From sequence record KX130865: DNA of 64,000 nucleotides; one strand, written 5' to 3'. This document shows, one piece after another, positions 2,704 to 41,055 of this stretch (positions are counted from its first letter, which is position 1; each line of letters starts with the position of its first letter). Position numbers and translations under genes: made by a program. The notes under the pieces were generated by a model. The model saw nothing but the letters and a program-made list of their open reading frames with translations, ran no database searches and was not told where the DNA came from. Source of the stretch: Shigella phage SHSML-52-1.

Positions 2704-5415
2704 ATGAAAGAATTTTACTTAACGGTTGAACAGATTGGTGATTCAATTTTTGAACGTTACATCGATTCTAATGGCCGTGAACGTACTCGAGAAGTAGAAT
2801 ATAAACCATCACTGTTTGCTCATTGTCCAGAAAGTCAGGCTACGAAATATTTCGATATCTACGGTAAGCCGTGTACTCGTAAGTTGTTCGCTAATATGCG
2901 TGATGCTTCCCAATGGATTAAACGTATGGAAGATATCGGACTTGAAGCACTTGGCATGGACGATTTCAAATTGGCGTATTTGTCTGACACTTATAACTAT
3001 GAAATCAAATACGACCATACAAAAATTCGTGTGGCTAACTTCGACATCGAAGTAACATCTCCGGACGGGTTCCCTGAGCCGTCACAAGCAAAACATCCGA
3101 TTGATGCTATCACCCATTATGACTCAATTGACGACAGGTTCTACGTATTTGATCTATTGAATTCTCCATATGGTAATGTAGAAGAATGGTCTATCGAAAT
3201 TGCGGCTAAGCTTCAAGAACAAGGTGGTGATGAAGTTCCATCTGAAATTATCGATAAAATCATTTATATGCCGTTCGATAACGAAAAAGAATTGTTGATG
3301 GAATATCTCAACTTCTGGCAACAGAAAACTCCTGTCATTTTGACTGGATGGAACGTTGAGTCATTTGATATTCCATATGTGTATAACCGAATCAAGAATA
3401 TTTTTGGCGAATCTACTGCGAAACGTTTATCGCCACATCGTAAAACTCGTGTTAAAGTTATCGAAAACATGTATGGTTCTCGTGAAATCATTACATTGTT
3501 CGGTATATCTGTTCTTGATTACATTGACCTTTACAAAAAATTCTCTTTTACCAATCAACCGTCGTATTCTCTGGATTACATTTCAGAATTTGAATTGAAC
3601 GTTGGTAAACTGAAATATGACGGCCCTATTTCTAAGCTTCGTGAAAGCAATCACCAACGATATATTTCTTATAACATTATCGACGTGTATCGTGTATTGC
3701 AAATTGATGCTAAACGCCAGTTCATTAACTTGAGCTTGGACATGGGTTATTATGCTAAGATACAGATTCAATCTGTGTTTAGCCCAATTAAAACATGGGA
3801 TGCTATTATTTTTAATAGCCTTAAAGAGCAGAACAAGGTGATTCCGCAAGGTCGTTCTCACCCGGTTCAACCTTATCCTGGCGCTTTTGTTAAGGAACCT
3901 ATTCCAAATCGATACAAATATGTAATGAGTTTCGACCTTACATCTCTGTATCCAAGTATTATTCGCCAAGTGAATATTAGCCCGGAAACAATAGCAGGAA
4001 CGTTTAAAGTAGCTCCACTGCATGATTATATTAACGCAATCGCTGATCGTCCTTCAGATGTGTACAGTTGCTCTCCTAACGGCATGATGTATTATAAAGA
4101 CCGTGATGGTGTAGTTCCAACTGAAATCACTAAGGTCTTTAATCAGCGTAAAGAACATAAAGGTTACATGCTTGCAGCTCAACGTAATGGTGAAATAATT
4201 AAAGAGGCATTGCATAATCCTAATCTTTCTGTTGATGAACCATTAGATGTTGATTATCGTTTCGACTTCACTGATGAGATTAAAGAAAAGATTAAAAAGT
4301 TGTCTGCTAAATCTCTTAATGAAATGTTGTTTAGAGCTCAACGTACTGAAGTTGCAGGTATGACTGCACAAATTAACCGTAAATTGCTTATCAACTCACT
4401 TTATGGTGCACTTGGAAACGTTTGGTTCCGTTATTACGATTTGCGTAATGCAACTGCAATCACAACATTTGGTCAAATGGCTTTACAGTGGATTGAACGT
4501 AAAGTTAATGAATACCTGAATGAAGTTTGTGGTACAGAAGGCGAAGCTTTCGTTCTTTATGGTGATACAGACTCTATTTACGTATCTGCTGATAAAATTA
4601 TCGATAAGGTTGGTGAATCTAAATTCCGTGATACCAACCATTGGGTAGACTTCTTAGATAAGTTCGCTCGTGAACGTATGGAACCTGCTATTGATAGAGG
4701 TTTCCGTGAAATGTGTGAATACATGAACAATAAACAACACTTAATGTTCATGGACCGAGAAGCTATCGCTGGTCCTCCGCTCGGTTCTAAAGGTATTGGT
4801 GGATTCTGGACTGGTAAGAAACGTTATGCATTAAACGTGTGGGATATGGAAGGTACTCGTTACGCTGAGCCTAAACTCAAAATCATGGGTCTCGAAACAC
4901 AGAAATCTTCGACCCCTAAAGCAGTACAGAAAGCTCTTAAAGAATGTATTCGTCGTATGCTTCAAGAAGGTGAAGAATCATTACAAGAATATTTTAAAGA
5001 GTTTGAAAAAGAATTCCGTCAATTGAATTATATTAGCATCGCGTCGGTATCTTCTGCGAATAACATTGCTAAATATGACGTTGGTGGATTCCCTGGTCCT
5101 AAATGTCCGTTCCATATTCGTGGAATTCTGACGTATAACCGGGCTATCAAAGGTAATATTGATGCTCCACAAGTTGTAGAAGGTGAAAAAGTATATGTTC
5201 TGCCTTTACGTGAAGGAAACCCATTCGGTGATAAATGTATCGCATGGCCTTCTGGCACTGAAATCACAGATTTAATTAAAGACGACGTACTTCATTGGAT
5301 GGACTACACTGTTCTCCTTGAGAAGACATTTATTAAACCACTTGAAGGATTCACATCAGCAGCGAAACTCGATTACGAGAAGAAAGCATCTCTGTTCGAT
5401 ATGTTCGATTTTTGA
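2704..5415 (+). CDS. 43: family B DNA polymerase gp43
   Basis: 903 aa; exonuclease motifs (FDIEV, YNIIDV), polymerase motifs (SLYPSII, YGDTDS); N-terminus matches the RB69-type polymerase as recalled. Confidence 0.97.
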   Translation: MKEFYLTVEQIGDSIFERYIDSNGRERTREVEYKPSLFAHCPESQATKYFDIYGKPCTRKLFANMRDASQWIKRMEDIGLEALGMDDFKLAYLSDTYNYEIKYDHTKIRVANFDIEVTSPDGFPEPSQAKHPIDAITHYDSIDDRFYVFDLLNSPYGNVEEWSIEIAAKLQEQGGDEVPSEIIDKIIYMPFDNEKELLMEYLNFWQQKTPVILTGWNVESFDIPYVYNRIKNIFGESTAKRLSPHRKTRVKVIENMYGSREIITLFGISVLDYIDLYKKFSFTNQPSYSLDYISEFELNVGKLKYDGPISKLRESNHQRYISYNIIDVYRVLQIDAKRQFINLSLDMGYYAKIQIQSVFSPIKTWDAIIFNSLKEQNKVIPQGRSHPVQPYPGAFVKEPIPNRYKYVMSFDLTSLYPSIIRQVNISPETIAGTFKVAPLHDYINAIADRPSDVYSCSPNGMMYYKDRDGVVPTEITKVFNQRKEHKGYMLAAQRNGEIIKEALHNPNLSVDEPLDVDYRFDFTDEIKEKIKKLSAKSLNEMLFRAQRTEVAGMTAQINRKLLINSLYGALGNVWFRYYDLRNATAITTFGQMALQWIERKVNEYLNEVCGTEGEAFVLYGDTDSIYVSADKIIDKVGESKFRDTNHWVDFLDKFARERMEPAIDRGFREMCEYMNNKQHLMFMDREAIAGPPLGSKGIGGFWTGKKRYALNVWDMEGTRYAEPKLKIMGLETQKSSTPKAVQKALKECIRRMLQEGEESLQEYFKEFEKEFRQLNYISIASVSSANNIAKYDVGGFPGPKCPFHIRGILTYNRAIKGNIDAPQVVEGEKVYVLPLREGNPFGDKCIAWPSGTEITDLIKDDVLHWMDYTVLLEKTFIKPLEGFTSAAKLDYEKKASLFDMFDF

Positions 5416-5455: not shown

Positions 5456-6091
5456 ATGAAAACTACACCAATCACTATCGCTATTGACGCAATCGTAAAA
5501 CAAGCTTCATCTCTTGCCACTATGGCTAAAGTAATTAGTCAAAACCCTGCCCGATATAATGCTATTCTTGAAACTCTTCGTCGCCCTGGACTGAGTAATT
5601 ATGAAAGCCGAGTAATTATTACAGGTGTTGGTAAGAATGCTAATATTGCAACTAAAGCTTCTGAGACATTTGCTTCACTAGGTATTCCTAGCATGTATTT
5701 GAACACTGGGCATTATTCTCATGGTGACGCAGGATTTATTGCACCTAATGATGTATTAGTTCACATCAGTCGTTCCGGTAAGACTGAAGAAATGATAGGT
5801 GTTGCTAAACATCTTCGTATGATTCGTCCTCAGGTTAAACAGATTCTGTTACATTGTAACCCTGACATTCCACAAGAATACGAAGCTCTTTTTGATTATA
5901 CGTTCTGTACCGGTATCGCGGTAGAAGTTGACGAGAACTCTTTAGCTCCGACCATGTCTACTACATTGTTGTTAGCGCTTATCGATACGTTCGCTATCAA
6001 CCTTTCATCTGAACGTGGATTTACCTCTAATGATTTCCTTAAGTTCCATCCAGGCGGTGCACTAGGTGCCATGTTACGAGGCGAACAATGA
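5456..6091 (+). CDS. SIS-domain sugar-phosphate isomerase (arabinose-5-phosphate isomerase / KpsF-GutQ-like)
   Basis: 211 aa; SIS signatures VGKNANIA, SRSGKTEE and C-terminal FHPGGALG typical of KdsD/GutQ-type isomerases. Confidence 0.7.
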   Translation: MKTTPITIAIDAIVKQASSLATMAKVISQNPARYNAILETLRRPGLSNYESRVIITGVGKNANIATKASETFASLGIPSMYLNTGHYSHGDAGFIAPNDVLVHISRSGKTEEMIGVAKHLRMIRPQVKQILLHCNPDIPQEYEALFDYTFCTGIAVEVDENSLAPTMSTTLLLALIDTFAINLSSERGFTSNDFLKFHPGGALGAMLRGEQ

Positions 6092-6231
6092 AAGCAATAA
6101 CAATAGGACTTTTACTATTGATGCTTGCCATGACTATCTACTGGAGCTTAACGGCTCCAGTAATGATTCCAACACTTGTAATTGGATGGATTATGATTGG
6201 TCTACAGGCAAAGTATGAATGCTTTAACTAG
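6088..6231 (+). CDS. small hydrophobic protein (47 aa), translationally coupled to the SIS gene
   Basis: ATGA overlap with the SIS stop; two predicted TM segments; not in ORF track (below 60 aa). Confidence 0.25.
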   Translation: MKAITIGLLLLMLAMTIYWSLTAPVMIPTLVIGWIMIGLQAKYECFN

Positions 6232-19755: not shown

Positions 19756-19949
19756 ACAAGCCCTATAATAGCAAAGGCCAAATCAACTACAGTATCCAAT
19801 GGAATAGAAGGAACTATAATACCATGGGCAACTAACAATGGTGCAATCCCGAAGTTCCATGAAATAATGCCACCTACAACTATTGCAGCGATAGCAGTTT
19901 TCTTTTTATTGCCTTTAATAGCGTTGATTAACGATGGAAGTTTAAACAT
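19752..19949 (-). CDS. small membrane protein (65 aa), antisense to the surrounding early genes
   Basis: Strong RBS AAGGAGATATT before ATG on the minus strand; hydrophobic segments; convergent with gene 61. Confidence 0.45.
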   Translation of the reverse strand: MFKLPSLINAIKGNKKKTAIAAIVVGGIISWNFGIAPLLVAHGIIVPSIPLDTVVDLAFAIIGLV

Positions 19950-19978
19950 AATATCTCCTTAGTTACCTATTATTTATT

Positions 19979-23434: not shown

Positions 23435-24043
23435 ATGTTTATGCCGTATAATGAATGTGAAATTGAGGAAATGGTTCGCCGTGCTCAATGCCCCGAATAT
23501 CAAGATGAATTGCAGTACGAAATTGATAGTCAATTCAACGATAATGAACAAAGCATCCTTTGGCAGTGTATGGAAAACAAGCCAGACTGTATTCAACAGG
23601 AGTTAAGTTCAATCGTTCGTAGAAATTGGACGTCTTCAGTTCCTGAGACAATGTATCGTGGAATCTCTAAGAAAACTATGGCCACACTCGATGATAAAAG
23701 CATTGGTAGTATTATTAAATTTGACAGAGTAATGAGCTTTAGTCCAGTGTTCGGTGTAGCACGTAACTTTGCTTCGTATAATTTTTACGGAACATTTAAT
23801 ATGTTCTGCATCAAAGATGCACCATTTGCTTTCAACTTCCGTGAACATATGCTTAACATGATTCTGGCTGCGCCATCTTGTGAGTTCAATGGAGCTTTCC
23901 CTGAAGCGACAAGACGGTCTAATGCTAGACTTATATCTGACGAATGCGAATTTATGCTCCCTATAGGGACTACACTACGTGTAGATTCTATTATTCAAGA
24001 TGGACGTTATACAATCTGGAATCTGTCTATTGTCAGTTACTGA
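23435..24043 (+). CDS. ADP-ribosyltransferase, ModA/ModB-like (paralog 2)
   Basis: 202 aa; shares N-terminal block (E.QSILW.C…VRRNWTSSVPETMYRGI) with paralog 1; SFSPVFG and ECEFM motifs. Confidence 0.55.
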   Translation: MFMPYNECEIEEMVRRAQCPEYQDELQYEIDSQFNDNEQSILWQCMENKPDCIQQELSSIVRRNWTSSVPETMYRGISKKTMATLDDKSIGSIIKFDRVMSFSPVFGVARNFASYNFYGTFNMFCIKDAPFAFNFREHMLNMILAAPSCEFNGAFPEATRRSNARLISDECEFMLPIGTTLRVDSIIQDGRYTIWNLSIVSY

Positions 24044-24117
24044 CTGAATTGGAATAACCGGATGGAACTCAGAACCATTATAACACATAAAAAATTAAAG
24101 CATTTTATGAAAAAAGA

Positions 24118-24158
24118 GTGTACACTACCTGAGGGCATGATATTATAGACCTATCAGC
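24118..24158 (+). promoter_or_regulatory. PeSL-type early promoter (-35 GTGTAC 24118-24123, -10 TATTAT 24141-24146, core TATAGACCTATCAGC)
   Basis: 17-bp spacer; conserved cassette core. Confidence 0.5.
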
Positions 24159-30037: not shown

Positions 30038-30217
30038 ATGCCGTTATACGACTATAAATGTCAATCTGAAGATTGTGGCCATGAATATGAAAAAATTAAA
30101 AGGATTTCTGAACGAGAAAACGATGTTTGCCCTGAATGTCATCGTCTGTCTACTCGTCGGGTTTCTGCTCCTAAACATGTGAACGGTGGTTTTTACGACT
30201 TACTTAAGAAGGGATAA
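30038..30217 (+). CDS. zinc-ribbon protein (FmdB-like, 59 aa)
   Basis: MPLYDYKCQSEDCGHEYE…DVCPECH: CxxC…CxxC pattern of the FmdB regulatory zinc-ribbon family; not in track. Confidence 0.45.
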   Translation: MPLYDYKCQSEDCGHEYEKIKRISERENDVCPECHRLSTRRVSAPKHVNGGFYDLLKKG

Positions 30218-37490: not shown

Positions 37491-37967
37491 ATGAAAGTGA
37501 AGATTGCTGACACTGCTCGGTACTCGTTGAAACAAGATCCAGGTCAAATAAAAGAAGACGTTGTTCGACGTTGTAAGGTTGCAGTCTTTGCAGAGTATGT
37601 AGTAGCAAATTGGCTAGACGGATATGTTAATAAAGGTAATGAAGACGTAGAAGACCCGTACACGTATGCGTGGGACGTGTTAGCCCATCCTAAATATTGT
37701 GGAATTCGTGTAGAAGTCAAGACACATCAGATGGATTCTAAATGGATTTCTGTTACCACAGGATACAGTGGTGATTATCCAGGCGGCAACGGAATCAACA
37801 TAGGGCCCTTCCTTAATCATCGAGTCGCTGACTGTATTATTATATTGAATGTCAAAGAAACCTCACCTGACGTCTTCTCTTATTCTATAAAGTTCGTGGG
37901 AGACCATGAAGACCTAAAGAAAATCGTCCGCAAGAGCAACTACAACGGCTGGTATCTTCATCTTTAA
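37491..37967 (+). CDS. putative PD-(D/E)xK-type nuclease at the denB position
   Basis: ATG 37491 within track ORF 37347-37967; AWDVLAHPKYCGIRVEVKTH resembles a D…E-x-K nuclease core; synteny with T4 denB. Confidence 0.35.
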   Translation: MKVKIADTARYSLKQDPGQIKEDVVRRCKVAVFAEYVVANWLDGYVNKGNEDVEDPYTYAWDVLAHPKYCGIRVEVKTHQMDSKWISVTTGYSGDYPGGNGINIGPFLNHRVADCIIILNVKETSPDVFSYSIKFVGDHEDLKKIVRKSNYNGWYLHL

Positions 37968-37979
37968 TTTCATAAAAGT

Positions 37980-38016
37980 GTTTACAACTAAGTAGGACTA
38001 TGATATAGTAGTCCTA
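37980..38016 (+). promoter_or_regulatory. PeSL-type early promoter (GTTTAC 37980-37985; 8-bp inverted repeat TAGGACTA / TAGTCCTA)
   Basis: Variant core ATAGTAGTCCTATC. Confidence 0.5.
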
Positions 38017-38035
38017 TCTAAAAGAGGATAACATC

Positions 38036-38299
38036 ATGAAATTTAAATTTTTCTACGCAAAACATAAAGTAACAGGCGAATTTGTTTCAATGTACAACAC
38101 TGCAGATGACGAAGGGATGATTTATACCCATTTGGGTCTATCTCATTGGGACTCGGACGTGCCTTATATGTCATCTGAAGCCGAAATAACTCGTTTAGTT
38201 AACGGACATATGAACGACCATTTTGGTGTTATTCTTTCTAAAGACCTTAAAGAGGTTATCAACAAAGGATATATGGAACTCGCGGAAGTTGAGATATGA
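38036..38299 (+). CDS. hypothetical protein (87 aa)
   Basis: Track ORF with RBS AAGAGGATAA. Confidence 0.5.
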   Translation: MKFKFFYAKHKVTGEFVSMYNTADDEGMIYTHLGLSHWDSDVPYMSSEAEITRLVNGHMNDHFGVILSKDLKEVINKGYMELAEVEI

Positions 38300-38382
38300 G
38301 CTCTAAAATGTGGATCGGAATATGGTTGCTTAGTATCCCAATGATTTGTATAATATTTTCAATTGTGTTGAGGTACTTATGA
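38296..38382 (+). CDS. small hydrophobic peptide (28 aa)
   Basis: ATGA-coupled to the upstream ORF; single TM-like segment; not in track. Confidence 0.25.
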   Translation: MSSKMWIGIWLLSIPMICIIFSIVLRYL

Positions 38383-38489
38383 AAAATGCACTTCTTATTG
38401 TACTAAGAACAATTTGTGATACGGGTTTTTACATTGCATGTTCGTTCACTGGAACATGGTTGGCTTTAACATATTTTAATGTAATTTAA
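38379..38489 (+). CDS. small hydrophobic peptide (36 aa)
   Basis: ATGA-coupled to the preceding peptide ORF; not in track. Confidence 0.25.
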   Translation: MKNALLIVLRTICDTGFYIACSFTGTWLALTYFNVI

Positions 38490-38491
38490 TT

Positions 38492-38530
38492 GTTTACAAC
38501 ACAGTAGGATTATGGTATAGTAGTCCTACT
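38492..38530 (+). promoter_or_regulatory. PeSL-type early promoter (GTTTAC 38492-38497; inverted repeat AGTAGGA / TCCTACT)
   Basis: Cassette upstream of ORF 38550. Confidence 0.5.
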
Positions 38531-38549
38531 GAAACATGAGGAACACAAA

Positions 38550-38750
38550 ATGGCTAAGCTTTTTAAAGATGTTGAAATTGGTGAAAAATTCGTCCTGAAT
38601 AATGGACAGCAGCTTATTCGTGTAGCTTCTATAGCCGGACAAACTCATAACTGCATTGCCCCAACGTGTTGGACTCGATTCTTTATTGAAGATGACACTG
38701 AATGTTTAACTGTTGAAGAGCTTTTTGAACGTTCTGATATGGCCGAATAA
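38550..38750 (+). CDS. hypothetical protein (66 aa)
   Basis: Track ORF with RBS TGAGGAACA. Confidence 0.5.
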   Translation: MAKLFKDVEIGEKFVLNNGQQLIRVASIAGQTHNCIAPTCWTRFFIEDDTECLTVEELFERSDMAE

Positions 38751-38826
38751 AATTGTACAAACTCTTGAGAGCAGAGTATAATGCTCTCATGGATTACAAA
38801 AACATTAATCAATTGAGGAAATTAGC

Positions 38827-39273
38827 ATGTCCAAATATTTAACTCGTAAAGACCTTCTGGCAGTTGGCGGTGAAGTTGTTGCAGTAGTTCGTAATGGCGA
38901 ATACGGTTCTGAAGTTTCTAAAGAGTTTCGTTCTCGTGAAGGTTTTTACTTCTTTGTTAAAGGTTCATCTGACTGGCGACAAGTAGCAGCACGATTCTTT
39001 GTAGGACGTCAACGTTCTAAACAAGGGTTGGATGCAATTCTTTCTCACATTCGTCAAGGCCGTTCACAACTCGCCCGTACCATGGGCACTAATAATATTG
39101 AATATGACGTAATCTTTGTTTCAGCCAAGAACATGAAACCCCTGACTACTGGTTATGGTAAAGGTCAATTGGCTCTGGCATTCACTCGCAACCATACATC
39201 AGAATATCAAACACTCACTGAAATGAACCGTCTTCTGGCCGATAATTTCAAATTCATTCTGCAGAGTTACTAA
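38827..39273 (+). CDS. ndd: nucleoid disruption protein Ndd
   Basis: 148 aa; [12 protein letters not shown]…[14 protein letters not shown]…[15 protein letters not shown]…LADNFKF matches recalled T4 Ndd. Confidence 0.85.
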
Positions 39274-39280
39274 TTTATAC

Positions 39281-39314
39281 AGGCCTATTAAGTTAGGCCT
39301 TTAATTTATTTTTG
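39281..39314 (+). terminator. terminator after ndd (AGGCCUA-UUAAGU-UAGGCCU + U-rich)
   Basis: 7-bp stem followed by TTAATTTATTTTTG. Confidence 0.6.
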
Positions 39315-39325
39315 AGGTAATTAAA

Positions 39326-39472
39326 ATGGTATCATGGATTATTGCATTGTTGTGTTGGTCGTTTTTATTCGTTAACACTTTAGTTACAGGCGAAACAACA
39401 GTATTTCAACAGGCCGTATCACAAGGCACCTTAGCGGTCTTAGCTCTTTTTAACGTGTTAAAAGGCGAGTAA
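39326..39472 (+). CDS. small membrane protein (48 aa)
   Basis: RBS GAGG; hydrophobic; TAATG-coupled to the next small ORF; not in track. Confidence 0.35.
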   Translation: MVSWIIALLCWSFLFVNTLVTGETTVFQQAVSQGTLAVLALFNVLKGE

Positions 39473-39612
39473 TGATTAAGAAAATCTTAGCAGGAGCCTT
39501 CGGGCTCTTGTTGTTGCTTACGGTTCTGTACTATGGTGTGATGTTTGGACTAATCCAAGTAGTGCTTTTCATTTCAGATGTTATAATGGATATTCGTTCA
39601 TTAATATGGTGA
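39472..39612 (+). CDS. small membrane protein (46 aa)
   Basis: Hydrophobic; ends 4 nt before the gene 52 ATG. Confidence 0.35.
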   Translation: MIKKILAGAFGLLLLLTVLYYGVMFGLIQVVLFISDVIMDIRSLIW

Positions 39613-39616
39613 AAAT

Positions 39617-40942
39617 ATGCAATTGAATTCTCGTAATCTAAAAAGTATTATTGATAACGAAGCCTTAGCATATGCGATGTACACCGTTGAAAACCGTGCA
39701 ATCCCAAACATGATTGATGGATTTAAGCCGGTTCAACGTTTTGTGGTTCATCGTGCATTAGATTTGGCTCGTGGTAATAAAGAAAAATTTCATAAACTTG
39801 CGTCAATTGCAGGCGGTGTTGCAGATTTAGGTTATCACCATGGTGAATCTTCTGCACAAGATGCAGGTGCATTGATGGCTAACACATGGAACAACAACTA
39901 TCCACTGTTAGATGGCCAAGGCAACTTTGGTTCTAGAACAGTCCAAAAAGCTGCAGCATCTCGTTATATTTTTGCTCGTGTAAGTAAAAATTTCTATAAC
40001 GTATATAAAGATACTGAATATGCTCCAGCTCATGAAGATAAAGAACACGTTCCACCAAAATTCTATCTTCCTATTATTCCGACAGTTCTTTTGAATGGTG
40101 TATCTGGTATTGCAACCGGTTACGCAACAAATATTCTGCCTCATAGTTTTAAATCGGTAAAAAAGGCTGTATTACAAGCTCTTCAAGGTAAAAATGTCAC
40201 TAAGCCAAAAGTTGAATTCCCGGAATTCCATGGTGAAGTACATGAAGTTGATGGGCGTTATGAGATTCACGGAACATATAAGTTCACATCTCGCACTCAA
40301 ATGCAGATAACTGAAATCCCATATAAATTCGACCGTGAAACGTATGTGAGTAAGGTTCTTGACCCGTTGGAAGACAAAGGTCTAATCTCATGGGAAGATG
40401 ATTGTGGTGAACACGGCTTTGGGTTTAAGGTGAAGTTCCGTAAAGAGTACTCGCTTCCTGATGATGAAGAGCTACGTCATGAAAAAATCATGAAAGATTT
40501 TAGTCTCATCGAACGTCGTTCACAAAACATCACAGTGATTAATGAAAAGGGTAAATTAGCAGTCTACGATAACGTAGTGGACTTAATCAAAGATTTTGTT
40601 GAAGTCCGTAAGACTTACGTTCAGAAACGTATTGACAACAAAATCCTTGAATCTGAAAAAGCATTTAAACTGGCTTTTGCTAAGGCACACTTCATCAAAA
40701 AAGTTATCAACGGTGAAATCGTGATTCAGGGCAAGACTCGTAAAGCTTTGACTGAAGAGCTAGCACAAATCGAAATGTACAAAGAACATGTCGATAAACT
40801 GGTGGGTCTTAACATCTTCCATATCACTTCCGACGAAGCACGTAAACTAGCAGAAGAAGCTAAAGCTAAGAAAGAAGAAAATGAGTATTGGAAGTCTACT
40901 GATGTTGTGACAGAGTACACTAAAGACTTGGAGGCACTTTGA
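39617..40942 (+). CDS. 52: topoisomerase II medium subunit gp52 (GyrA-like)
   Basis: 441 aa; N-terminus MQLNSRNLKSIIDNEALAYAMYTVENRAIPNMIDGFKPVQRF matches T4 gp52. Confidence 0.93.
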   Translation: MQLNSRNLKSIIDNEALAYAMYTVENRAIPNMIDGFKPVQRFVVHRALDLARGNKEKFHKLASIAGGVADLGYHHGESSAQDAGALMANTWNNNYPLLDGQGNFGSRTVQKAAASRYIFARVSKNFYNVYKDTEYAPAHEDKEHVPPKFYLPIIPTVLLNGVSGIATGYATNILPHSFKSVKKAVLQALQGKNVTKPKVEFPEFHGEVHEVDGRYEIHGTYKFTSRTQMQITEIPYKFDRETYVSKVLDPLEDKGLISWEDDCGEHGFGFKVKFRKEYSLPDDEELRHEKIMKDFSLIERRSQNITVINEKGKLAVYDNVVDLIKDFVEVRKTYVQKRIDNKILESEKAFKLAFAKAHFIKKVINGEIVIQGKTRKALTEELAQIEMYKEHVDKLVGLNIFHITSDEARKLAEEAKAKKEENEYWKSTDVVTEYTKDLEAL

Positions 40943-41017
40943 GTGCCCTAGCCTTAGGATTTCTCGGTGCAATAGCTGCACTAGTGATTTGGCTGTATTG
41001 GTTGGACAAACATGATT

Positions 41018-41055
41018 AGGGAGCTTCGGCTCCCTTTTGTGCATTTTTTTCTCAC
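41018..41055 (+). terminator. rho-independent terminator after gene 52 (AGGGAGC-UUCG-GCUCCCU + U-run)
   Basis: Perfect hairpin followed by TTTGTGCATTTTTTT. Confidence 0.7.

Follow-up and report, generated by a model that had tools for sequence, protein, structure and literature searches.

The window, a stretch of 64,000 nucleotides from Shigella phage SHSML-52-1 (sequence record KX130865), comes from a T4-like coliphage of the genus Mosigvirus with 98-99% identity to LF82-4, APCEc01, and p000v. It carries four micro-ORFs, designated here orfA to orfD, which an earlier note had described as two pairs of translationally coupled ORFs for hydrophobic peptides. The sequence and the ORF list confirm their positions and lengths (28, 36, 48, and 46 aa), as well as both junction overlaps: ATGA (4 nt) for orfA/orfB and TAATG (1 nt) for orfC/orfD. 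The overlaps hold, but the pairs are not isolated. Each belongs to a longer chain, one running from an 87-aa ORF through orfA to orfB and the other from orfC through orfD to gene 52. The TGA stop of the 87-aa ORF overlaps the orfA ATG as ATGA, which extends the first “pair” to three ORFs. The features of the locus, with the basis for each, are as follows.

37980..38016, + strand: early sigma70-type promoter (TTTACA-17-TATAGT) with a hairpin of 10-bp stem (promoter scan; hairpin -13.2 kcal/mol, z -4.1)
38036..38299, + strand: 87-aa ORF, phrog_2390, first cistron of its chain (ORF list, PHROG match)
38296..38382, + strand: orfA, 28-aa single-helix hydrophobic peptide MSSKMWIGIWLLSIPMICIIFSIVLRYL, T4 ndd.6 orthologue (BLASTP, phrog_8851)
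38379..38489, + strand: orfB, 36 aa from its ATG, moderately hydrophobic, Mosigvirus-specific (phrog_18561)
38492..38528, + strand: 37-bp promoter-hairpin cassette, second copy (promoter scan, repeat; hairpin -16.8 kcal/mol, z -6.5)
39281..39300, + strand: terminator-like hairpin with a T-rich tail, in the interval between ndd and orfC (-11.4 kcal/mol)
39326..39472, + strand: orfC, 48-aa two-helix hairpin peptide of the T4 Ac family (phrog_2501, BLASTP, AF2)
39472..39612, + strand: orfD, 46 aa, T4 gp52.1 orthologue, DUF7396 (BLASTP, Pfam, phrog_3595)
39617..40942, + strand: gene 52, DNA topoisomerase II medium subunit, the large last gene of the orfC-orfD chain (ORF list, relatives' annotation)

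The chain of 87-aa ORF, ndd.6, and ndd.5 is also present in the Tequatrovirus phages Ec_O157kw, BCPSen_003, and Killian. Start/stop overlap is itself commonplace: of 21 gene junctions in the corresponding region of T4, 8 overlap.

Counterparts of the four micro-ORFs in T4-type phages

We consider the four micro-ORFs to be the Mosigvirus forms of small early membrane-protein genes from the denB-to-gene 52 interval of T4-type phages, with a probability of roughly 85%. Here, orfA corresponds to ndd.6, orfC to ac, and orfD to 52.1, while the ndd.5 slot is filled by orfB, a cassette specific to the genus. All four have family matches among PHROG profiles (E 4e-11 to 1e-29). Orthologues occupy the same positions in Tequatro-, Gapriver-, Dhaka-, Jiaoda-, Marfa-, Moon-, Kanagawa-, and Gelderlandvirus. 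Searches with tblastn returned 757 records for orfA, 723 for orfD, 272 for orfC, and 151 for orfB; orfD spans nine Tevenvirinae genera, the orfC family at least five, and orfA four (Tequatro-, Mosig-, Gelderland-, and Dhakavirus). Ndd-anchored retrieval from IMG/VR yielded three loci only, and GenBank phage records served as the comparison set instead.

orfA is 54% identical to T4 Ndd.6 over 28 of 28 residues (BLASTP, E 6e-11) and matches phrog_8851 over positions 1-28 of 28 (E 3.7e-11). T4 Ndd.6 (28 aa, P39248; phrog_8851) has the same length, is likewise ATGA-coupled to the next ORF, and also lies downstream of denB. T4 lacks the 87-aa ORF, whereas orfA, like ndd.6 in some Tequatroviruses, is ATGA-coupled to it. 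The database label “outer membrane protein” for Ndd.6 looks implausible for a single hydrophobic helix of 28 aa, in which neither a signal peptide nor a lipobox is evident on reading the sequence. A literature search under the names ndd.5 and ndd.6 found no phage papers, only papers on neurodevelopmental disorders.

orfC belongs to the Ac family. It matches phrog_2501 over residues 2-48 (E 4.5e-22), the family that also contains T4 Ac (E 2.2e-25), and is 37% identical to T4 Ac over 35 aa (BLASTP, E 3e-7; z 9.4 against shuffles). The two proteins share an SVFxQ..xQG motif, and G34 of orfC aligns with G38 of T4. T4 Ac (gene ac, 51 aa, P18924) is of similar length, and both genes lie between ndd and 52.1 with a 3' end that overlaps the 52.1 start, by 1 nt in the window versus 8 nt in T4. 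Unlike T4, SHSML-52-1 has no stp between ndd and ac. The single-sequence AF2 model of orfC has helices at 2-21 and 25-46 (pLDDT 79), resembling the two-helix hairpin of the ESMFold model of T4 Ac (10.1101/2025.06.30.662393). orfC therefore departs from the single transmembrane segment that the earlier note had assigned to each peptide; orfD is modelled as one long helix. orfC falls in a second allele class, TGET(T/S)VF, to which T4 Ac does not belong; other members come from some phages of Tequatrovirus and Jiaodavirus (e.g., RB32, Ec_O157kw, and KP1079).

orfD is 72% identical to T4 gp52.1 over 46 aa (BLASTP, E 2e-21). It matches Pfam PF24129 (DUF7396) at 81.6 bits (cutoff 27) over positions 1-46 of 46, and phrog_3595 at E 6e-24. 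T4 gp52.1 (46 aa, P18922) is equal in length and likewise immediately precedes gene 52. The two differ in the N-terminal half of the helix, ILAGAFGLLLLLTVL in orfD and ILGYSLALAALLVAL in T4 gp52.1; in the AF2 model of orfD, the helix extends over residues 2-45 (pLDDT 96). A gap of 4 nt separates the end of orfD from gene 52, which the 52.1 gene directly precedes in nine genera; in all lineages examined, the ORF upstream of 52.1 overlaps its start, by 1, 4, or 8 nt.

None of the four micro-ORFs is new. Any hint of overlooked genes in the earlier note does not survive comparison with T4 counterparts, PHROG and Pfam families, and annotated GenBank relatives. The finding is ordinary, since orfA, orfC, and orfD are T4 ndd.6, ac, and 52.1, orfB sits in the ndd.5 slot, and all are present in public annotations and family libraries. 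Their discovery value is small, the loci being either well-known T4 genes or hypothetical proteins already in catalogues. The GenBank record of phage 55 annotates all four; that of APCEc01 annotates three (orfA is missing), one of them as “acridine resistance protein”; and those of Mizar and NBG1 annotate neither orfA nor orfD. One or more of these genes are missing from many GenBank records, so cut-offs on ORF size systematically conceal early membrane peptides of a conserved class.

Coding signals and selection

Hydrophobicity alone is weak evidence for a gene in this AT-rich genome. All four peptides are hydrophobic, as the earlier note had proposed (GRAVY 1.07-1.70), yet of the 265 short ORFs with an ATG start in all six frames, 37 reach a GRAVY of at least 1.0. 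Only 8 of these 37 lie outside longer ORFs, and half of the eight are orfA to orfD, which occupy otherwise empty gaps on the coding strand. Each is preceded by a Shine-Dalgarno-like motif: GAG for orfA, GAGGT for orfB and orfC, and AAGG/GGCGAG for orfD.

Comparison between genera indicates purifying selection on orfA, orfC, and orfD. Between-genus pN is well under pS, with dN/dS of 0.26-0.5 for orfA, 0.17-0.5 for orfC, and 0.04-0.2 for orfD. Within the genus, orfD gives a ratio of 0.83 (4 synonymous and 11 nonsynonymous changes), while between genera it is strongly conserved. Conservation of the frames in relatives, which the earlier note had proposed as a check, is thus seen for orfA, orfC, and orfD across several genera (dN/dS 0.04-0.5), but not to the same extent for orfB, which is Mosigvirus-only and weakly constrained. 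Taken together, these data support the four ORFs as real genes that are translationally coupled and encode small hydrophobic peptides, probably inserted in the membrane.

Expression data from T4 cover transcripts and proteins. Transcripts of ac, 52.1, and ndd.2-ndd.6 are classed as early (PMC9697503 Table S2), and the proteins Ac, gp52.1, and Ndd.2-Ndd.6 were undetected by mass spectrometry in the same multi-omics study (Class_P = NA; PMC9697503). Our literature search found no T4 Ribo-seq study. Rfam gave no match at E <= 1 across 37900-39700, leaving a structured-RNA explanation unsupported.

Promoter cassettes and the ndd.5 slot

The first chain is flanked by two copies of a 37-bp cassette. 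The copy at 37980..38016 is the upstream member of a PeSL-like repeat in exact register, where none is expected by chance; it probably drives the 87-aa ORF, orfA, and orfB. The second copy ends this module and drives the ndd.1-like gene. Promoters were predicted at 37981, 38493, and 38754. The PeSL (promoter-early stem-loop) cassettes of T4-type phages are likewise repeated units of early promoter, hairpin, and Shine-Dalgarno on either side of small variable ORFs in a hyperplastic region (Arbiol 2010 PMC2839356; Comeau 2014 PMC4122927), and the window cassettes match their -35/-10 consensus TTTACW-N17-TAYWAT. They differ in the placement of the hairpin, which lies across the -10 box, whereas in the published PeSL of phage PST the stem-loop is just 5' of the promoter. 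Ahead of the second chain, the counterpart of the hairpin at 39281..39300 is annotated as a terminator in the relatives NBG1 and G53.

orfB occupies the T4 ndd.5 slot without resembling its T4 occupant. It follows orfA (ndd.6) directly with a 4-nt overlap, and a longer, TTG-started version from 38346 is in the ORF list. T4 Ndd.5 (32 aa; phrog_5011) shares the slot, the ATGA overlap with ndd.6, a similar size, and an MK- start. However, we rejected orfB as a diverged ndd.5: BLASTP gave no match at E <= 10, z was 0.8 against shuffles, and the PHROG families differ (phrog_18561, E 1.4e-29, versus phrog_5011). orfB is best read, by analogy, as a putative cassette replacement in this slot, like the exchange of ndd.4 and ndd.5 in phage PST (PMC4122927), where the swap is mediated by PeSL (PMC4122927 Fig. 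6A).

Sequence comparison lends weak support to orfB as a constrained gene. Within Mosigvirus, its nonsynonymous/synonymous ratio is ~0.65 versus 0.05-0.15 in its neighbours, on small counts. This ratio comes from 14 aligned copies, 8 of them from the orfB tblastn list (seven of low identity and one identical), and is indicative only because the seven low-identity matches (loci L019-L025, chosen for low orfB identity) inflate the nonsynonymous count. A decaying or chance frame, located in the spacer that separates orfA from the next promoter cassette and open only because Mosigvirus genomes are 96-99% identical, would account for the restriction of orfB to 151 closely related Mosigvirus-like records, its lack of resemblance to T4 Ndd.5 or anything else, the even spread of its polymorphisms across codon positions (7, 4, and 5), and the high ratio. 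orfB is also the least hydrophobic of the four, with R10 and D14 in its N-terminal half, and its frame is destroyed by a 1-nt deletion in PECP20 and loses a codon in p000y. Against this, a good Shine-Dalgarno (GAGGT) lies 4 nt ahead of orfB, whose start overlaps orfA as ATGA, the exact T4 ndd.6/ndd.5 geometry, and one annotator reports a transmembrane helix (TMHMM). Full-length, single-piece matches occur in 150 of 151 records, and among the 14 aligned copies, where stop codons were examined, PECP20 alone is broken; that deletion, located at the homopolymer junction GGG/TTTTT, could be a sequencing error. The sampled loci were also biased to divergent proteins. We regard it as unlikely that orfB, alone of the four, is nonfunctional.

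Proposed membrane action and its alternatives

The proposed mechanism starts from transcription immediately after infection. The genes would be carried on short polycistronic mRNAs, and a ribosome finishing one cistron would re-initiate on the next, coordinating synthesis. The peptides, once made, would lodge in the inner membrane of the host: as a single helix in the case of orfA and of orfD, and as a helical hairpin in that of orfC. If it works like T4 Ac, orfC may alter how the envelope handles small cationic dyes and so let acridines build up inside infected cells; for T4, inhibition of AcrAB-TolC efflux is the mechanism now proposed. The wild-type gene thus confers sensitivity and its loss appears as “acridine resistance”, which makes the name “acridine resistance protein”, given to orfC counterparts in relatives, misleading. 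orfA and orfB would be accessory peptides of a hyperplastic region, dispensable in the laboratory and exchanged via the flanking PeSL-like cassettes.

E. coli AcrZ is a 49-aa inner-membrane peptide that binds AcrB. AcrZ is comparable to orfC and orfD in size and in having a hydrophobic helix, and the proposed link to AcrAB-TolC is that of T4 Ac; the likeness is one of analogy only. Mimicry at the sequence level was rejected, with z of 0.15 for orfC and 0.34 for orfD against composition-preserving shuffles (acrZ from MG1655). T4 gp52.1 gave z 2.85 against AcrZ, which is unconvincing after seven tests.

The label of “small membrane effector”, put forward in the earlier note, agrees with what is known of T4 Ac (10.1101/2025.06.30.662393), the only one of the T4 counterparts with a documented function. 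Expression of T4 Ac in E. coli raises acriflavine sensitivity, and T4 phages with a deletion of ac or a G38R substitution in Ac are acriflavine-resistant (10.1101/2025.06.30.662393). The AcrAB-TolC model is a preprint hypothesis (10.1101/2025.06.30.662393; echoed in PMC13250531). Sensitivity from wild-type ac has been shown for T4/T2-type alleles only, and the homologue survey of the preprint covered only ac genes of 93-100% identity (10.1101/2025.06.30.662393), as against 37% for orfC. The BASEL intercalator study reports no acriflavine data for Mosigvirus phages.

The PHROGs and Pfam scans and the literature found contain nothing that points to a function for orfA, orfB, or orfD, and the only mention of gp52.1 found was the GT7 deletion. 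Some or all of the peptides, especially these three, could be membrane-active factors unrelated to dye permeability, serving superinfection exclusion, protection against or triggering of abortive infection, or lysis timing. The peptides are early-expressed, hydrophobic, and dispensable, the same region encodes rIIB, Stp (the activator of PrrC in T4), and Ndd, and promoter cassettes shuffle the genes, as expected of host-adaptive genes. Yet the same scans and papers gave no hint of any of these roles, and orfD is so widely conserved and so tightly attached to gene 52 that it is unlike a strain-specific counter-defence gene. We consider such a role quite unlikely. That the peptides themselves are irrelevant, and the micro-ORFs are translational relays that open mRNA structure, deliver ribosomes, and set downstream expression, above all of gene 52, is highly improbable. 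A relay would fit the chain of overlaps and 4-nt spacing from orfC through orfD to gene 52, which is kept in all lineages with varying overlap geometry, as well as the terminator-like hairpin ahead of orfC and the acceptance of unrelated peptide families (phrog_2501 or phrog_9347) in the slot 5' of 52.1. However, amino acid conservation is far above what a relay needs (orfD dN/dS 0.04-0.2, with the core YYGV.FGL..VVLFISDVI invariant across genera), and gene 52 has its own GGTGA Shine-Dalgarno. In T4, a single missense change in Ac, G38R, gives resistance, plasmid-expressed Ac has a phenotype on its own (10.1101/2025.06.30.662393), and the phage is viable without the entire 52.1-rIIB block (PMC9712115).

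Within the preferred reading of the micro-ORFs as T4-type early membrane-protein genes, orfD may cooperate with the hairpin peptide of the preceding ORF. We hold this with low confidence; it is suggested by gene arrangement alone, the two being translationally coupled in every lineage examined. One elaboration, which we think very unlikely, would have gp52.1 serve as the constant member of an inner-membrane module of two peptides, produced at fixed stoichiometry and alongside gp52. The variable partner would be the upstream hairpin peptide, either of the Ac family (phrog_2501, with at least two allele classes) or of the unrelated phrog_9347, and partner swapping would tune the targeted envelope function (efflux or permeability) to the host. 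Different Ac classes stand alongside the same 52.1 type, and no covariation of Ac and 52.1 was visible. If such a module exists, the phenotypes of T4 ac deletions could be partly polar on 52.1, a possibility raised by the 8-nt overlap of the two T4 genes. Conserved in nine genera, and in every case coupled both to gene 52 and to a hydrophobic peptide encoded upstream, gp52.1 is a reasonable target for studies of host membrane and efflux remodelling by T-even phages.

Coupled genes for small membrane peptides

The four micro-ORFs analyzed here belong to the known genes of the T4 family and can already be found in annotations and family libraries. All four occur where the earlier note had placed them, as confirmed in the sequence and the ORF list, and the sequence also bears out both overlaps. 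Each ORF is preceded by a Shine-Dalgarno-like motif.

Micro-ORFs under study
38296-38382, +, orfA, 28 aa
38379-38489, +, orfB, 36 aa, ATGA overlap with orfA
39326-39472, +, orfC, 48 aa
39472-39612, +, orfD, 46 aa, TAATG overlap with orfC

The description of these ORFs as two pairs holds for the overlaps but not for the count, as an 87-aa ORF (38036-38299, +) is ATGA-coupled to orfA, giving a three-member chain. It was also missed that the orfD stop lies 4 nt ahead of gene 52 (DNA topoisomerase II medium subunit). The broader interpretation as coupled genes that encode small membrane peptides is upheld. All four products are strongly hydrophobic, as proposed (GRAVY 1.07-1.70). A GRAVY of at least 1 is common background in this AT-rich DNA, being found in 37 of 265 short ATG-ORFs across six frames; eight of these 37 sit outside longer ORFs, and orfA-orfD make up half of the eight. 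A single TM segment had been suggested for every peptide. This is correct for orfA and orfD and nominally for orfB, but orfC has two modeled helices. In AlphaFold2 models built from single sequences, orfD is one unbroken helix (2-45, pLDDT 96), while orfC forms helices 2-21 and 25-46 with G-E-T between them (pLDDT 79), a hairpin that agrees with the ESMFold hairpin of T4 Ac in a preprint (10.1101/2025.06.30.662393).

Four more short hydrophobic ORFs (31-47 aa, GRAVY ≥1.0), outside every ORF of at least 80 aa, may be additional genes for small membrane proteins, in the same broad class as these.

Further short hydrophobic ORFs
6088-6231, +
19867-19962, +
30081-30182, +
24037-24138, -

Identity and conservation

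BLASTP against the translated T4 region matched orfA to Ndd.6 (54% identity, all 28 residues, E 6e-11), orfC to Ac (37% across 35 residues, E 3e-7), and orfD to gp52.1 (72% across all 46 residues, E 2e-21); orfB had no match in that region. Profile searches were concordant, placing orfA in phrog_8851, orfB in phrog_18561, orfC in phrog_2501 (shared with T4 Ac), and orfD in phrog_3595, with orfD also matching Pfam DUF7396 (81.6 bits against a cutoff of 27). The plus-strand order (rIIB, a 95-aa ORF, denB, the 87-aa ORF, orfA, orfB, an ndd.1-like gene, ndd, orfC, orfD, gene 52, motA) is that of T4's classical early region, rIIB-denB-ndd-ac-52. The ORF list shows nothing comparable to the four micro-ORFs on the minus strand of the region, and Rfam returned no family matches there.

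Over the surrounding 2.1 kb, identity to Escherichia phages LF82-4, CAU_ECP01, p000v, and APCEc01 (genus Mosigvirus, Tevenvirinae) is 98-99%, and 151 phage records span 80% or more of this stretch. GenBank annotation of relatives is inconsistent. The phage 55 record annotates all four ORFs, three as putative transmembrane proteins; that of APCEc01 has orfB, orfC (“acridine resistance protein”), and orfD; and that of Mizar notes a TMHMM helix for orfB. Most records lack orfA, and orfD (52.1) is unannotated in Mizar, NBG1, G53, p000y, and many Tequatrovirus records; in some, its position is covered solely by the “acridine resistance protein” feature. This name is misleading because wild-type Ac gives sensitivity.

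The earlier note had made its reading depend on frame conservation in relatives. The comparison used the corresponding region of 20 annotated phage records (T4 included) and three IMG/VR contigs. The frames of orfA, orfC, and orfD are conserved, as indicated by pN well under pS between genera and by their spread in tblastn (757, 272, and 723 phage records, respectively, counting orfA-like matches). Nei-Gojobori dN/dS between the window and other genera was 0.26-0.5 for orfA, 0.17-0.5 for orfC, and 0.04-0.2 for orfD, in which changes are mostly at third positions (e.g., 25 of 44 differences from T4). In nine genera (Tequatro-, Mosig-, Gapriver-, Dhaka-, Jiaoda-, Marfa-, Moon-, Kanagawa-, and Gelderlandvirus), a gp52.1 homologue immediately precedes gene 52. 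These homologues share a near-invariant core, YYG(V/M)xFG(L/M)..(V/I)VLFISDVI, with S(L/F/Y)(I/V)W at the C terminus. Of these genera, at least five have Ac-family peptides and four have Ndd.6.

The 87-aa ORF is split in an IMG/VR contig (L005 1710-1973; 37 + 43 aa) and in phage Killian (L018 2501-2765; 60 + 32 aa), and is absent from T4, which suggests that it is dispensable. The ndd.6 frame is intact where this ORF is split.

Promoter cassettes and orfB

A promoter scan found three Sigma70-type early promoters. The first two are embedded, in exact register, in two copies of a 37-bp cassette, GTTTACAACnnAGTAGGAyTATGrTATAGTAGTCCTA (chance expectation, none), with strong hairpins (-13.2 and -16.8 kcal/mol). 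These copies bracket the 87-aa ORF-orfA-orfB module.

Promoters, cassettes, and terminator
37981-38009, +, promoter; cassette at 37980-38016
38493-38521, +, promoter; cassette at 38492-38528
38754-38782, +, promoter; diverged third cassette copy at 38754-38790, ahead of ndd
39281-39300, +, terminator-like hairpin after ndd, followed by the orfC-orfD-gene 52 chain

As promoter-hairpin cassettes flanking a module, they resemble the PeSL (promoter-early stem-loop) elements of T4-type phages, although the window hairpin spans the -10 box and the published PeSL stem-loop lies upstream of the promoter. In phage PST, T4 ndd.4/ndd.5 were swapped for unrelated ORFs via PeSL cassettes (PMC4122927, 2014). 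T4 Ndd.5 belongs to phrog_5011, not to the family of orfB; a PeSL-type exchange, as in PST, would thus explain an unrelated peptide in the ndd.5 slot.

By tblastn, orfB is restricted to the 151 Mosigvirus-like records. It is probably expressed, because it has a GAGGT Shine-Dalgarno and because its ATGA coupling matches that of T4 ndd.6/ndd.5 exactly. An alignment of 14 Mosigvirus sequences shows five synonymous and 11 nonsynonymous variant codons in orfB (ratio 0.65, biased by small counts and by seven loci picked for low orfB identity). The same ratio is 0.05-0.10 for denB, the 87-aa ORF, ndd.1, and ndd, and 0.15 for orfA; that of orfD is 0.83, yet comparison between genera shows orfD to be clearly constrained. 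In p000y, orfB has lost a codon in frame, and in PECP20 it has a frame-breaking 1-nt deletion that may be a sequencing error, as it falls at a GGG/TTTTT run. Overall, orfB appears weakly constrained and dispensable.

Ac, gp52.1, and their neighbors

Ac alone among the four has experimental support for function, and only as the T4/T2 allele. T4 becomes acriflavine-resistant on ac loss or G38R (classic genetics; 10.1101/2025.06.30.662393), and this glycine aligns with orfC G34. E. coli expressing Ac is more sensitive to acriflavine and ampicillin, and the preprint's authors propose that Ac blocks AcrAB-TolC efflux (10.1101/2025.06.30.662393), an idea carried as an assumption in a 2026 PNAS paper (PMC13250531). 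One version, mimicry of the AcrB-binding peptide AcrZ, was dropped as no similarity was found. Transcripts of T4 ac, 52.1, and ndd.2-ndd.6 are early, and LC-MS detected none of the proteins (PMC9697503 Table S2). T4 survives loss of the whole 52.1-rIIB block in the GT7 deletion (PMC9712115); the T4 orthologues are therefore dispensable in the laboratory.

In the T4 locus (L003, record orientation), ac (3843-3998) and 52.1 (3710-3850) overlap by 8 nt, so complete ac deletions, such as that of the 2025 preprint, may remove 52.1 start context. The preprint (10.1101/2025.06.30.662393) does not discuss polar effects on 52.1, and the term “52.1” is absent from its text.

An upstream ORF overlaps the 52.1 start codon in every lineage examined, by 1 nt in the window, 4 nt in 348Ecol098PP, PSD2001, Merlin, Q7622, and S16, and 8 nt in T4, phi25-307, pEC-M719, Marfa, KP1079, and AnYang. 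The retained trait thus appears to be coupling as such, not any one sequence; such overlaps are commonplace in these genomes, occurring at 8 of 21 junctions in the T4 region. Two further peptide families lie between ndd (or ndd/stp) and 52.1. One, phrog_9347, is a second hairpin-peptide family with motif G(V/A)W(V/I/T)P, unrelated to Ac but sharing its ND/NK ending. In Q7622, an extra 43-aa ORF (L014 2388-2519) between it and 52.1 supplies the overlap. The other, not in the window, is a conserved small membrane protein of ~57-64 aa (...GL.P......S..F...FERI....G..K).

Peptide families upstream of 52.1 (coordinates within each fetched locus)
L010 3081-3245, phrog_9347, Gaprivervirus, overlaps 52.1 start
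L017 2222-2383, phrog_9347, Dhakavirus, overlaps 52.1 start
L012 2343-2483, phrog_9347, Marfavirus, overlaps 52.1 start
L014 2230-2388, phrog_9347, Kanagawavirus
L012 2134-2319, small membrane protein, Marfa
L016 2143-2316, small membrane protein, KP1079
L015 2640-2825, small membrane protein, S16
L013 2053-2247, small membrane protein, Merlin

What remains of mild interest is gp52.1 alone, a very conserved peptide set against gene 52. Translational coupling always ties it to a hairpin peptide encoded upstream, which is interchangeable (phrog_2501 or phrog_9347); the two might form a functional two-peptide module.

A candidate fifth micro-ORF (40939-41019, +; TTG start, 26 aa, hydrophobic, MSALALGFLGAIAALVIWLYWLDKHD) follows gene 52 and is unannotated in APCEc01 and Mizar. 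There is a GGAGG 5 nt ahead of its start, which overlaps the stop of gene 52, and a terminator (41019-41050; GGGAGC-UUCG-GCUCCC hairpin and T-run) is directly 3′. The same slot is filled by motA.1 in T4 and, in Merlin, S16, Q7622, and Marfa, by hydrophobic ORFs of 45-59 aa that overlap the stop of gene 52; none of these has detectable similarity to the candidate. Three relatives also have the candidate's frame open, with three nonsynonymous changes and one synonymous change.
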